This document shows positions 34,313-38,772 of a DNA stretch of 64,000 nt, one piece after another. Each line of letters starts with the position of its first letter. The first letter of the stretch is position 1. Origin of the DNA: Acidimicrobiales bacterium (lineage in GTDB: Bacteria > Actinomycetota > Acidimicrobiia > Acidimicrobiales > SZUA-35); NCBI GenBank assembly GCA_047638695.1, contig JBLINY010000002.1, positions 11-64,010 of the forward strand, in the 5' to 3' direction. The notes below the pieces were generated by a model. That model made no database searches, had not been told where the DNA came from, and saw only the letters and a list, made by a program, of their open reading frames with translations. Position numbers and translations under genes: made by a program.

Positions 34313-34623
34313 CGCCCACTCCCGGCTGGACTCGGTACCAACGAGCCGATGTCCCACTGAGCGGCCAAGATCTGATCGGCGGCGACGAAGGCCTCCAGAG
34401 TTTCATCGATCGCCGTCTCGATGACCCTGACCTCGTCGGCCAACCGCTGTCGCATGCGATCGAGGTCGCCGATGAACTGGTCGAGCAGTTCCTGCATCTG
34501 GGGCGCACCGATCACAACCGGCAACGTGATCGCTTCAATTGTTTCCACCTCGTCGGCCAGCTGGTCGAACGACTGGGCCAACGAAGCAACCACTTCGTGT
34601 GTTACTGAGATCGTGCCGTTCAT
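34309..34623 (-). CDS. small helical protein, EspC/DUF2580-like or WXG100-like (104 aa)
   Basis: MNGTISVTHEVVASLAQSFDQLADEVETIEA... is all-helical in character and about 100 aa long. It has ATGA overlaps with both neighbours. Family assignment is tentative. Confidence 0.65.
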   Translation of the reverse strand: MNGTISVTHEVVASLAQSFDQLADEVETIEAITLPVVIGAPQMQELLDQFIGDLDRMRQRLADEVRVIETAIDETLEAFVAADQILAAQWDIGSLVPSPAGSGR

Positions 34624-35159
34624 GCCGCATCACGCCGCTGCTGCTCCTGGTGATCCCGCAGTTGTTTGGCTGTCAGGGCGGCGTGCGCCCGTTGGAGGTG
34701 GGGAGGCAGCTTCTCGACCTGCCTGAGTGTCAGTGGAGCCAGCTTCCTCCGAACAAGCAGAACCTCCCCCTGGCGGTGGGTGGCGTTGAACCGACTCGTG
34801 CGATCGACGGCCCGCCAGAACGGGCTGTTCTTACCACCGCGCATGCCGAGGCCGAGTTCGAACGCCCAGTTCACCGGGTCGAGATCGTATCCCTCGGGTT
34901 GGATCTCTAATCCCGCTGCTAGGCGCCGTAACAACAACGTCGCCGTTGGCCCCAGGATGCTGACCCAGTAGCGCTCGACATACAGGCTGCGAGGGTCATG
35001 GCCGAGTTGATCGAGCGTCGCGTCTTCCCAGGGCTTTACCTGCAACCGCTTCTCTGGGAACACAGGGCCCAGATCGTTGATGGGCCGAGGTATCGGCACC
35101 GCCGACATTGCCGGGCCTCCTGGAGGATTGGGTCCATCAGGTGGTGTCAGTTCGTTCAT
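34620..35159 (-). CDS. hypothetical protein, possible winged-helix DNA-binding protein (179 aa)
   Basis: Proline-rich N-terminus, then YVERYWVSILGPTATLLLRRLAAGL...VNWAFELGLG...SPFWRAVDRTSRFNATHRQGEVLLVRRKL. This looks like a helix-helix-wing pattern. The C-terminal helix is basic. First gene of the operon. Confidence 0.65.
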   Translation of the reverse strand: MNELTPPDGPNPPGGPAMSAVPIPRPINDLGPVFPEKRLQVKPWEDATLDQLGHDPRSLYVERYWVSILGPTATLLLRRLAAGLEIQPEGYDLDPVNWAFELGLGMRGGKNSPFWRAVDRTSRFNATHRQGEVLLVRRKLAPLTLRQVEKLPPHLQRAHAALTAKQLRDHQEQQRRDAA

Positions 35160-35214: not shown

Positions 35215-35243
35215 AAGGTAAATAACAGTAGTTAAATTGTCAA
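35215..35243 (-). promoter_or_regulatory. putative sigma-70-type promoter of the three-gene operon
   Basis: The minus strand reads TTGACA (complement of 35238-35243), a 17 nt spacer, then TACCTT (complement of 35215-35220). It lies about 55 nt upstream of the ATG at 35159, inside the most AT-rich stretch of the window. Confidence 0.4.
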
Positions 35244-35294
35244 GACCGCAGACAGTAGTTTTTTATGAGAGAGTGACTCTTAGTGGCAGTAGTT
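35226..35294 (-). repeat. three direct repeats of AACTACTG (plus strand CAGTAGTT) in the AT-rich intergenic region
   Basis: Exact 8-mers at 35226-35233, 35253-35260 and 35287-35294, spaced 27 and 34 nt apart. On the plus strand each is followed by an A/T run. The first lies in the spacer of the putative promoter. Confidence 0.6.
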
Positions 35295-35330
35295 TTCAGT
35301 AACCGTCAGGGGTTTGCGTGTCAGACACCG

Positions 35331-35843
35331 TCATTCCCCCCGGAAGTCGAGATCGGGCACGGAGCGATCGGTCATCTCGCGGGCGACCAGACGCAGCTCT
35401 TCGAGCGTTGGTCGACCGACGAAGTACCAGCCGTTGAAGATGTGGGAGATCGTGAGATCGGGCAACAAACCAAACGTGAATGGCACCGGCAGCGGCCCGT
35501 GGGTCGAATCGGTGGTCTCGCTGATCCCCAGCTGGTTCGTCAACGAGCGGTCTTCGTCGCTGAGGAAGTGGAACTTGGCTCCGAGCCCTGCCTTGAACGC
35601 TTCGAGAACCCGCGGCGGATCAACCGATATGGCCGCGACCTGTTGGTAGGCGACCTTGGTGGCGTCTGAGAACTGGACCAGTTCTCGCAGCTGAAGCTGT
35701 CATTTGGGTCACCAGGGCCCACGGAAGAATGCCAGGAACAGCGGTTGGCCTTGGGCCACCTCACCGATTGAGATGGCCTGGCCCCGGTCGTTGGTCAGTG
35801 TCACGTCGGGGAAGATGTCGCCGACCTGCAGGTTCAACGGCAT
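35331..35843 (-). CDS. PRX_like2 / redoxin (AhpC-TSA family) protein with two in-frame TGA codons at the CxxC positions: candidate UxxU selenoprotein
   Basis: A single 170-codon reverse frame reads MPLNLQVGDIFPDVTLTNDRGQAISIGEVAQGQPLFLAFFRGPW-TGA-PK-TGA-QLQLRELVQFSDATKVAYQQVAAISVDPPRVLEAFKAGLGAKFHFLSDEDR...NGWYFVGRPTLEELRLVAREM. The TGA codons are the complements of 35709-35711 and 35700-35702. The family motif is F-[FY]-R-G-x-W-C-P-x-C. The track shows only fragments (35331-35543). Confidence 0.7.
35668..35686 (-). promoter_or_regulatory. SECIS-like hairpin downstream of the two TGA codons
   Basis: Minus-strand RNA GAGAACU-GGUCC-AGUUCUC: a perfect 7 bp stem with a loop containing GGUC. It starts 13 nt after the second TGA and 22 nt after the first. 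Confidence 0.55.
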
Positions 35844-35848
35844 AACTT

Positions 35849-36988
35849 CTATGCCGACATTTGCCACGACGCATCGGCGGCGGGCAGATTGAAGAGGCGG
35901 GCCGTGTTGTCTCGGAAGATGTCCTGGTGCTGCTGCTCGGTGAGGTGTGAAGCCTGCTCGGCGATGAGCTCACGGGAACGGGGCCAGGTTGAGTCGGTGT
36001 GCGGAAAATCGCTGGCCCACAACAGGTGCGTGTGATCGACAAAATTCGTCGTGTGATAGGCGGTCACATCGTCTTGGAACGTAGCCCAGACATTGCTGCG
36101 GATGTACTCACTCGGCAGCTTCGAGAGACCTTCCAGAAGGCCATCTTCTGCGTTCATCCTGGCTGCGTGGTCCATGCGGTACATGTAGTGCGGCAGCCAG
36201 CCGGCGTCGCTCTCGGCAACCACAAGCTTCAAGTCGGGATGGCGTTCGAAAACACCACCCAACGTCATCATGCCAATCACGTCCTGGATTGCCCGAATGA
36301 TTCCGAGGAAGCTGTTGAGGTGATGACCACGGGGCTTGGTGTGGAGGCTGCCCGCTCGCGAGGTGAGGATGTGGAAACAGATCGGTAGATCGAGATCGAC
36401 TGCGCACTCCCAGAGAGCGTCGTAGTCAGCGTGGTCATAGTCCTCGTGGATTGGATCGCCCGGCATCATCATGCCGACCATTCCCATCTCCTTGGCCCGA
36501 ACGAAATCGGCGATCGCCCCGTCGACACTGAGAACTGCGGTCTGCGCCAGCCCGAAGATGCGGTCGGGAGCCTCGGCGCACATACCTTGCAGCCAACGGT
36601 TGTAGGCAAGCATGCAGGCATTCTTGTAATCTGGGTCGCGGTGCATGAACAGGCCCATGCCAACCGAGGCGTAGATCAACTCGGCGGCTAGACCATCCTG
36701 ATCCATGAACGGAACCCGTTCCTTGCCCAAGTATGCGGCAGGCCGAACGTCGTCAAACCGCATGGTCTTGGCTCTGGCATTGCGTTCCTTCGGGCCAAAG
36801 CCGGCCCCGTCGACGAAACCCAACGCGATCGGACGCTTCATGCCGGGCACGACGAATGCCTCGGTGCCATCGTCTTGTTCAATCACCCGCGGCGCGTCGT
36901 CGCGGTACTTCGGATCGATGAAGTCGACATAACAGTTCGGTGGTTCACATACGTGACCGTCAGCAGAAATGATGCCAGCAGGAATCAT
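35849..36988 (-). CDS. amidohydrolase-2 family protein (ACMSD-like metal-dependent hydrolase/decarboxylase)
   Basis: 379 aa, MIPAGIISADGHVCEP..., with SDFPHTDSTWP near the C-terminus. Its stop is 5 nt upstream of the redoxin ATG. Confidence 0.85.
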   Translation of the reverse strand: MIPAGIISADGHVCEPPNCYVDFIDPKYRDDAPRVIEQDDGTEAFVVPGMKRPIALGFVDGAGFGPKERNARAKTMRFDDVRPAAYLGKERVPFMDQDGLAAELIYASVGMGLFMHRDPDYKNACMLAYNRWLQGMCAEAPDRIFGLAQTAVLSVDGAIADFVRAKEMGMVGMMMPGDPIHEDYDHADYDALWECAVDLDLPICFHILTSRAGSLHTKPRGHHLNSFLGIIRAIQDVIGMMTLGGVFERHPDLKLVVAESDAGWLPHYMYRMDHAARMNAEDGLLEGLSKLPSEYIRSNVWATFQDDVTAYHTTNFVDHTHLLWASDFPHTDSTWPRSRELIAEQASHLTEQQHQDIFRDNTARLFNLPAADASWQMSA

Positions 36989-37050
36989 GGAGGCCTTTCG
37001 TTAGATGGAGCACTCGTGGAGGGAGCACAGTTGAATCGAGGGCTCGTGGA

Positions 37051-38772
37051 TCAAGCGCTCGTGGATTGAGGACCGCGAATGAGTTGTCCCGGCATGGACC
37101 CCGTTGCCTCACCGTCGCGGTAGATCACTTCGCCACGCTTGATCGTGGCCAGGTAGCCCTCGGCCCGCTGGATGAGTCGACGCCCGCCCGCCGGTAGGTC
37201 GTATGCCATCTCGGGAGCTCGCAGCGTCAAGTTCTCGAAGTCGATCACGTTGACGTCAGCCAACATGCCCGCTTCCAAGGTGCCCCGGTCGTCCAACCCG
37301 ACCTGACGAGCGGTGTCGCGGCACTGACGCTGGATTACGAGCTCCAGGGGCAACCGCTCGCCTCGCTCGCGGTCGCGCACCCAGTGGGTGAGCATGTAGG
37401 TGGGGAAGCTGGCGTCGCAGATCACGCCGCAGTGAGCGCCGCCGTCGGAAAGCCCAGGCACCGTGCCCTCGGCCAGGTTCATTTCTCGCACCACGTCATG
37501 GTTGCCGTCGGTGAAGTTGGCAAGCGGGAACAACATGAGTTCGCGGCCGTCGCGCTCGAGCAGCATGTCGTAAGCCATCTCGACGGGCGGAACTCCTGCC
37601 GCTTCGGCCCGATCTTTGATGCTGTCCTCGGGTGCGGGCTCGTAGTCCGGAGGATCGCCAAGAGGGAACATCTTGTGGAACGACTGCGCCACCATGCCCG
37701 ACATACCCCTGGTGCGCGACGCATGTTCCTCAATCAACTTGGCTCGCATTTCCGGGTCGCGCATGCGATCGACCCGCGCATCGAGGTCAAGGTCCGCCAG
37801 TTCTTTGCGGTAGGTGGGGCAAGTAATGAACGGATGCATCGACGACTGCAACCCAAGCAGGAGGCTCACCGGGCGGATGGCGACCTGAGCGGTGAGGTCG
37901 GTCCCACCGGCCCTGGCATCCTGGATACGGTCGAGCACCTTGCGCCAGTGGTCGGGGCTCTGATCGTTCTGCACCAGCAGGATCGACAGCGGCGCCGAGG
38001 CATGGTCGGCCATGCCCTCGAAGATCTCGAACTCAACGTCGAGATCGACAAAGTCGGAGACGATCTCGAGGTGCCCGAAGCCCTTGTCGGCCAACGCAGC
38101 CGCAATTCCCCACAGCTCATCGGGGGTGTTGGTGAGCGTCGGGATCTGGTTGCCCTCTTTGTCGCGGTGGTTGATCGTGCGAGAGGTGGTGAATCCGAGT
38201 GCTCCGGCCTCGAGCGCCTCGCCGGTCAGCTCACGCATCGTGGCGATCTCTTCGGGTGTGGCCACTTCGGTGTGATCGCGGCCGCGGTCGCCCATGACGT
38301 AGACCCGCAATGCCGAGTGGGGCATCTGGGCCCCGACATCGATGGCGTGAGGGATGGCCTCGACGGCGTCGAGGTACTCGGGAAACGACTCCCATGTGAA
38401 GTCAACGCCCTCGGACAGGGCGGCGCCAGGGATGTCTTCGACCCCTTCCATCACGCTGATCAGGAACTCATGTCGGTCGGGTCGAACGGGAGCGAATCCG
38501 ACACCGCAGTTGCCCATCACAATCGACGTGACGCCATGCCACGACGACGGGGTGATGGCGGGATCCCACAACACCTGACCGTCGTAGTGTGTGTGAATAT
38601 CCACAAAGCCAGGCGTGACCATCTGGCCCGCGGCATCGATTTCCTCGCGGCCTTGGTCGGGAACATCGCCGACGATGGAGATGCGATCTCCGTCGATAGC
38701 CACGTCGGCTGTTCGGGCCGCGACGCCCGTTCCGTCGACAACCCGGCCGTTACGAATAACTAGATCGTGCAT
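37051..38772 (-). CDS. N-acyl-D-amino-acid deacylase (D-aminoacylase) family amidohydrolase
   Basis: 573 aa with [16 protein letters not shown]...[24 protein letters not shown] lies upstream of the ATG. Confidence 0.9.

Follow-up and report, generated by a model that had tools for sequence, protein, structure and literature searches.

A probable selenoprotein gene with two in-frame UGA codons in an uncultured Acidimicrobiales bacterium, and its redoxin subfamily

The stretch of DNA considered here (64,000 nucleotides of contig JBLINY010000002.1, hereafter the window) comes from an Acidimicrobiales bacterium and carries, on its minus strand, a redoxin gene with two in-frame TGA codons. Judging from this gene and its relatives, the locus is very probably a functional selenoprotein gene of the uncultured bacterium, in which the two TGAs are read as selenocysteine (Sec, U). 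Such a local recoding, giving a U-x-x-U redoxin, had been proposed in a sequence-only reading of the same DNA. It is now supported by the conservation of the TGAs, the alternation of TGA with TGY at one of them, the selection acting on the gene, a covarying hairpin and the normal use of TGA as a stop codon. The parts of the gene are as follows:

35331..35843, minus strand: predicted selenoprotein gene, 170 codons followed by a TGA stop, coding for an AhpC/TSA-fold redoxin with a predicted W-U-P-K-U active site (from translation, Pfam, orthologues and the ratio of nonsynonymous to synonymous substitution rates, dN/dS)
35841..35843, minus strand: ATG start (sequence ...GGCATAGAAGTTATGCCG), 5 nt past the TAG that ends the amidohydrolase_2 gene upstream
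35709..35711, minus strand: UGA codon 45, predicted Sec at the first (N-terminal, nucleophile) redox position; TGA in 49/49 sequences, Cys in homologues
35700..35702, minus strand: UGA codon 48, predicted second Sec at the resolving position; TGA in 34/49 sequences, TGC/TGT in 15/49
35668..35686, minus strand: hairpin GAGAACUG-GUC-CAGUUCUC, resembling a selenocysteine insertion sequence (SECIS), within the coding sequence at codons R53-S59 (R-E-L-V-Q-F-S)

Reading frame, orthologues and cysteine-type relatives

When the reverse complement is translated, the minus strand from 35843 to 35331 reads as a single frame of 170 codons that runs from ATG (35843-35841) to TGA (35333-35331). It is interrupted only by two TGAs, at 35711-35709 (codon 45) and 35702-35700 (codon 48), and the one-frame gene that had been described is borne out by this translation. 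The context around the two codons is ...QPLFLAFFRGPW-TGA-PK-TGA-QLQLRELVQF..., and the motif becomes F-F-R-G-P-W-U-P-K-U when both are written as U.

The same gene is found well beyond the window. One genome per GTDB species was scanned, which gave 80 loci, including 48 close orthologues at 59–88% identity. Their hosts belong to at least eight phyla and include Acidimicrobiia/Acidimicrobiales, Acidobacteriota, Thermoanaerobaculia, Myxococcota, Latescibacterota, SAR324, Binatia, Spirochaetales and other metagenome-assembled genomes (MAGs). Together with the window gene, these orthologues form the set of 49 sequences on which the counts are based. All 49 start at the same codon position (ATG in 47, GTG in 2) and have 170 codons without further stops or frameshifts. 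Codon 45 is TGA in every sequence. Codon 48 is TGA in 34 of them, TGC or TGT in the other 15 and nothing else, and the motif accordingly reads U-P-K-U in 34 cases and U-P-K-C in 15. A rough neighbour-joining tree suggests that codon 48 changed between U and C at least three to four times independently.

Both sides of the interruption are under purifying selection, with a dN/dS (Nei-Gojobori) of approximately 0.30 for codons 1–44 and approximately 0.26 for codons 49–170. When the N-terminal part of the window gene is compared with that of one orthologue (L008), the proportions of synonymous and nonsynonymous differences are pS=0.52 and pN=0.08. These values upstream of the first TGA indicate that the 44 codons are translated in frame as part of a constrained protein. 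The exchange of TGA with TGC/TGT among orthologues and the purifying selection downstream, which the sequence-only reading had proposed as checks, are therefore both present, the former at codon 48.

Two in-frame stops, each of which a single mutation would turn into a Cys codon, might also be the mark of a decaying redoxin gene that has suffered two nonsense mutations. However, 34 genomes, spread over many phyla, have TGA at both positions, there is neither a frameshift nor any other stop in the 49 sequences, and purifying selection acts on both sides. An earlier argument against random decay thus holds across the 48 orthologues, and a pseudogene, the chance of which is close to nil, can be regarded as already refuted by the comparative data.

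Nothing except the raw observation speaks for a sequencing or assembly error, or for an organism in which TGA is read as sense (genetic code 4 or 25). The 513-nt gene is present base-for-base, with both TGAs kept, in contigs of five other, independent metagenome assemblies (L001–L004 and L088) from different samples. With regard to the genetic code, TGA serves as a stop more often than any other codon in the window, where it terminates 31 of the 45 long open reading frames (ORFs). It also ends the redoxin gene itself, and 27/49 orthologues of this gene end in TGA at codon 171. Since TGA ends other ORFs as well as redoxin orthologues, any recoding must be local. The ATGA junctions at 34620 and 34309, which had been named as further ordinary uses of this stop, are real. 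Error and alternative code are negligible possibilities and are already refuted.

There are some irregular members among the loci. In L022 and L038, codon 171 is CCC instead of a stop, and the ORF extends past the usual end. The gene of L090 (positions 297-809 of a scaffold of ENA ERZ23495043) agrees with the window gene in every one of its first 135 nt; from just after the first TGA, it has 135 mismatches in 375 nt, and the flanks differ as well. This pattern suggests that the assembly is chimeric or that recombination took place at the conserved motif.

More distant relatives have Cys at the first position. The motif R-G-F-F-C-P-R-D is found at 31 loci with 37–48% identity (Ktedonobacter, Cyclobacteriaceae, Flavobacteriaceae and others). 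A HMMER search with the C-terminal 122 residues against 1.84 billion cluster representatives gave a family of modest size, 424 clusters at E<=1e-3, in which the entire Sec clade amounts to one truncated representative. In 61 of the best 150 matches, the motif was recognisable: C-P-x-E in 30, C-P-x-D in 23 and C-P-x-A in 1, with the first-position Cys absent in 7. Codon 45 is thus matched by Cys in every one of the 31 distant homologues and, among the 61 representatives of the broader family whose motif is recognisable, in 54. The Cys-type relatives (R-G-x-[FWY]-C-P-[KR]-[DE]) are homologous to the redoxin protein over the full length, at 37–52% identity, and the motifs SVDPP, HGPLPVP and NGWY.GRP are common to both. 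They differ as 1-Cys proteins whose residue at the second Sec position is acidic, and they have neither the hairpin nor a TGA. Many Cys-type members of the broader family (P0147-P0295; L056-L087) have a length of 200–330 aa, with extra N- or C-terminal regions. Sec-type redoxin genes occur in lineages known for Sec use, and the Cys type is found in Bacteroidota and Ktedonobacteria.

For this reason, the family motif W-C-P-x-C, with Cys at both TGA positions, which had been claimed at the outset, needs to be corrected. Cys does align with the first TGA. At the second, the nearest Cys-type relatives are acidic (C-P-[KR]-[DE]), and Cys is found only in the 15 U-x-x-C orthologues. From these alignments, Cys or Sec at position 48 appears to be a trait of the Sec clade only.

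The downstream hairpin and the decoding of the two codons

Every Sec-type sequence has the same hairpin downstream of the TGAs, and in the window sequence it is part of the minimum free energy fold. The stem has 6–8 bp. Its conserved core, obtained with RNAalifold from a 47-sequence alignment, consists of 6 bp (35685-35680 with 35674-35669), and all six positions pair in 47/47 sequences. Three of the pairs covary (GC in 28, AU in 17 and GU in 2 sequences; AU in 31, GU in 14 and GC in 2; CG in 42 and UA in 5). The observed covariation score was reached in 0 of 500 column shuffles, and in slid controls, the share of cells that are paired drops from 86% to 27–60%. The compensatory change from A-U to G-C in L026 and L032 comes at the cost of a Phe-to-Leu replacement, and the one from C-G to U-A is made by two synonymous changes.

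The loop has 5 nt, N-G-U-N-N, in which G40 and U41 are invariant. A GpU in the loop of a SECIS element is recognised by the winged-helix domains of SelB. A G within the first two loop positions is a hallmark of the bacterial SECIS (PMC13582414). The loop agrees with both of these features. The mean dG of the hairpin is -9.2 kcal/mol in the Sec forms versus -3.4 kcal/mol in the 31 Cys homologues, despite a similar peptide (R-x-L-V-[QE]-F); the hairpin is lacking in the Cys-type homologues. The spacer to the stem is 13–14 nt for UGA-48 and 22–23 nt for UGA-45, and the distances to the loop are 20 and 29 nt, respectively. The U-x-x-C orthologues keep an identical hairpin geometry for their single UGA, and consequently the longer spacing of UGA-45 must work in these organisms.

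Two further structures were considered in the same region. A candidate long-range helix that would close the SECIS region over UGA-45 paired in 43% of cells, with the alignment register off by one column. The other is a second, smaller hairpin, which may be a mere reflection of the Q-L-Q-L codons:

35688..35699, minus strand: small hairpin CAGC-UUCA-GCUG right after UGA-48; 86% of cells pair, with practically no covariation

For this gene, we infer SelB-dependent decoding, Sec at both sites and a diselenide. Translation would begin at the ATG at 35843, and termination at UGA-45 and UGA-48 would be overridden locally. The in-frame hairpin (35686-35668) would act as a bacterial SECIS element and recruit SelB-GTP-Sec-tRNA(Sec), and this one hairpin would serve both UGAs, leading to Sec at both. 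The product is predicted to be a cytoplasmic oxidoreductase of 170 residues with a thioredoxin (AhpC/TSA) fold, whose active site reads W-U45-P-K-U48. In this site, U45 would be the attacking nucleophile, because the position is invariably Sec within the Sec clade, and nearly all relatives have Cys there. U48 would be the resolving residue by way of an intramolecular diselenide, and in the 15 Cys48 orthologues, the equivalent bond would be a selenenylsulfide.

A number of observations weigh against Sec insertion. The spacer of 22–23 nt between UGA-45 and the stem is twice the optimum of E. coli fdhF (11 nt). The covariation events are few (approximately 3–5 independent ones) and are located in a coding region. 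An Rfam search of the hairpin region gave chance-level matches only, with no fitting model and no bacterial SECIS model. In the nearest Cys-type relatives, the second position is acidic and never Cys, so that they have C-P-x-[D/E] and not C-x-x-C. Genes for tRNA-Sec, selD and selB were not found in the 64-kb window, in approximately 1.3 Mb of related loci or in approximately 25 kb beyond the window ends. In particular, ARAGORN gave no tRNA-Sec in the window or 50 loci, and tblastn with unvalidated E. coli queries gave no match to SelD or SelB in the window and all 80 loci, a weak negative. The 10 kb beyond either window end hold only housekeeping genes. Finally, no second selenoprotein gene was found in the window or the loci, where two scans for in-frame TGAs yielded only artefacts from antisense or adjacent genes.

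In the wider class, selA, selB, selC and selD are carried by Actinomarinales, another order of Acidimicrobiia (bioRxiv 10.64898/2026.04.03.716425). One other selenoprotein candidate was considered in the same organism, beyond the window start. It is a CobW-family gene (L091, 16840-17745), separated by a TGA from an ORF that precedes it in the same frame. This candidate was ruled out, as the gene has a start of its own and is of the ordinary Cys type (GCVCCS).

The same hairpin could also serve the insertion of another residue. In SECIS- and SelB-dependent recoding by a selC*-type tRNA (tRNA-ReC), Cys would be placed at one or both UGAs, and the product would be UxxC, CxxU, CxxC or a mixture. 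Genes resembling tRNA-ReC occur in approximately 56% of genomes with UXXU-type hydrogenases versus approximately 2% of other Sec-type genomes (PMC13582414), and UGA-to-Cys recoding with a downstream SECIS is attributed to Vargas-Rodriguez 2018, as cited in the same paper. The natural alternation of TGA with TGY indicates, moreover, that Cys is tolerated at codon 48. Nevertheless, codon 45 is TGA in 49/49 sequences and never TGY, which for this first site is hard to square with Cys as the intended residue, and no tRNA of this type was found in the window or the loci examined. Insertion of Cys is therefore considered unlikely, and Sec at both codons is the preferred reading.

Fold, family and known selenoproteins

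With U written as C, the protein matches two Pfam models, AhpC-TSA (PF00578; E=6.4e-19, 68.5 bits, cutoff 26) and Redoxin (PF08534; E=8e-16); PF13911 gave no match in this Pfam search. The matches to NCBIfam models are all below threshold, with 42.9 bits against a cutoff of 140 for BCP (PRK09437), 36.9 against 120 for the SelL-related model (NF040769) and 22.4 against 170 for ResA. From the label first given to the protein, AhpC/TSA-redoxin can be kept on account of PF00578 and PF08534, whereas "PRX_like2-type" has to be dropped, given the lack of PF13911 and the low SelL-related score. The closest solved structure in a PDB sequence search is A. pernix BCP (2cx3, E=3.5e-8). In a fold-level alignment, W-C-P-H-C of ResA falls on W-U-P-K-U (positions 45/48), and the peroxidatic Cys of the A. 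pernix protein falls on position 48. The peroxiredoxin (Prx) signature P-x-x-x-T/S-x-x-C is absent, with Arg in place of Pro and Sec45 at the Thr position.

BCP/PrxQ and ResA/TlpA have the same fold, but the scores of the redoxin protein against their models are far below the cutoffs. ResA, furthermore, has a signal peptide or membrane anchor, and the redoxin protein has neither. On the basis of its sequence, the protein is neither SelL, whose model cutoff is not reached, nor a canonical Prx, as the BCP/PrxQ signature is missing and the score stays below the cutoff of that model. It looks more like a thiol/selenol-disulfide oxidoreductase than a canonical peroxidase.

Selenoproteins of a similar kind have been described. 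Prx-like thiol:disulfide oxidoreductases with PF00578, a UxxC/UxxU motif and one or two Sec have been a high-confidence predicted family from 2004 (PMC9312934, PMC13188914), and the first description of PF00578 Prx-like selenoproteins is credited to Kryukov & Gladyshev 2004. In the review PMC9312934, selenoprotein families are defined by domain and motif. By domain and motif, the redoxin gene belongs to this kind, of which WP_010940744.1 (Geobacter) is the listed representative. What is shared is the Pfam domain, Sec as the first residue of the x-x-C/U motif, the existence of one- and two-Sec forms, the bacterial hosts and a SECIS in the coding sequence. UxxU sequences of the Prx-like family have also been reported in Global Ocean Sampling (GOS) data (PMC2398784). 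The "WUPKC" Prx-like sequences from GOS have only 29% identity over 65 residues to the redoxin protein. The signature strings of the subfamily are absent from the examined part of the GOS supplement, which does hold WUPKC Prx-like reads.

The natural diselenide in a UxxU motif was established in 2007 with SelL, as described in PMC2397514. SelL is known from fish, invertebrates and marine bacteria (Shchedrina et al. 2007), and one SECIS serves both of its UGAs, which are two codons apart (PMC4989117). SelL and the redoxin protein are both thioredoxin-fold, Prx-like proteins with two Sec two positions apart in the redox motif and one SECIS for both UGAs (PMC4989117, PMC2397514). They differ in family, the SelL-related model giving 36.9 versus 120 bits, and in hosts, which for the redoxin are Acidimicrobiia and other soil and freshwater MAG lineages. 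PrxL.1 of Lokiarchaeota, compared by description only, is likewise Prx-like and has both Cys of the redox box replaced by Sec, with one- or two-Sec homologues at the same positions, but it is archaeal and has a eukaryote-like SECIS outside the coding sequence (PMC4989117). The rarity at first ascribed to U-x-x-U was thus overstated, since this form is known in PF00578 Prx-like proteins, SelL and other families (PMC9312934, PMC13188914, PMC4989117, PMC2398784).

Annotation, gene neighbourhood and significance

In public gene calls, the gene is present only in pieces. A search across 5.8 billion predicted proteins gave 319 homologues. The best 120 of these are all 97–123 aa long, cover the last 57–71% of the query and start after the TGAs. 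With the N-terminal 79 residues as the query, 25 matches were obtained, all confined to residues 1–44; fragments of 44 aa that stop at the first TGA account for 22 of these. There was no full-length C-x-x-C orthologue among these N-terminal matches. The occurrence of N- and C-terminal fragments only indicates that the interruption is family-wide, and the earlier statement that the gene escapes ORF calling applies equally to the public gene calls. At NCBI, the exact window fragment is labelled "MAG: peroxiredoxin [Acidimicrobiales bacterium]". Because the selenoprotein was missed, an ORF on the opposite strand has been called in its place:

35283..35669, plus strand: spurious antisense ORF of 128 aa over the C-terminal half of the redoxin gene, called as a gene in JGI contigs L001, L002 and L088

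These gene calls would fit a case without any recoding, in which translation stops at UGA-45 to give a 44-aa peptide and the downstream part is dead or separately expressed as in a split gene. This corresponds to the output of every gene caller, and no genes for tRNA-Sec, selD or selB were found in the loci examined. On the other hand, neither piece alone could form a thioredoxin fold, and there is no conserved start codon after the TGAs. The frame, the length and a dN/dS of approximately 0.3 are kept in both parts across at least eight phyla, and the stops fall exactly on the redox positions, with a covarying hairpin after them. A simple stop at UGA-45 is accordingly judged very improbable.

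The gene neighbourhood differs between genomes. No conserved neighbourhood was found across the orthologue loci, CoA-transferase genes recurring in only about 8 of them, and for this reason, the context gives no functional clue. In the window, the following gene lies upstream of the redoxin:

35849..36988, minus strand: gene for a 379-aa Amidohydro_2 protein (PF04909), adjacent only in this lineage

Co-transcription and coupling of the redoxin with the Amidohydro_2 gene are likely in this lineage, because the redoxin ATG comes 5 nt after the stop of the latter. At 35844-38772 (minus strand), an Amidohydro_3 gene and the Amidohydro_2 gene make up a trio with the redoxin, situated between priA and the minus-strand genes from 34620-35159 onward, an order of genes observed in this lineage alone. 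Three copies of ACAGTAGTT, as read on the plus strand (AACTACTGT if read on the minus strand), lie at 35225-35294, within the AT-rich stretch that separates the redoxin stop from the following minus-strand gene (34620-35159), at spacings of 27 and 34 nt. They may be operator or promoter repeats.

The subfamily, recognised by FFRGPW-U-PK-U/C, HGPLPVP and NGWY.GRP, has no NCBIfam model that reaches its cutoff and no full-length annotation in the data searched. What is new is a widespread, unannotated subfamily, while the kind itself was already known, and the known picture of selenoprotein biology is unchanged. The practical consequence is that a conserved redox protein of at least eight bacterial phyla is mis-annotated wherever it is found, as a 44-aa stub, as a truncated "peroxiredoxin" and sometimes as an antisense ORF.

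There are few natural proteins with two adjacent Sec, namely SelL, PrxL.1 of Lokiarchaeota, some hydrogenases and a few predicted families. The 34 UxxU and 15 UxxC orthologues with the same SECIS represent a natural experiment on diselenide versus selenenylsulfide, and on two UGAs 9 nt apart served by one bacterial SECIS. The chances are slightly better than even that both UGAs are Sec throughout and that these proteins make up a large family of natural diselenide (Se-Se) oxidoreductases in bacteria. In such a family, the second redox residue would have been gained at an Asp/Glu site and toggled between Sec and Cys at least three to four times, with a single in-frame SECIS working at two spacings (approximately 14 and 23 nt). 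If this is true, the subfamily would provide a comparative system for the study of diselenide versus selenenylsulfide chemistry and of SelB reloading within three codons.

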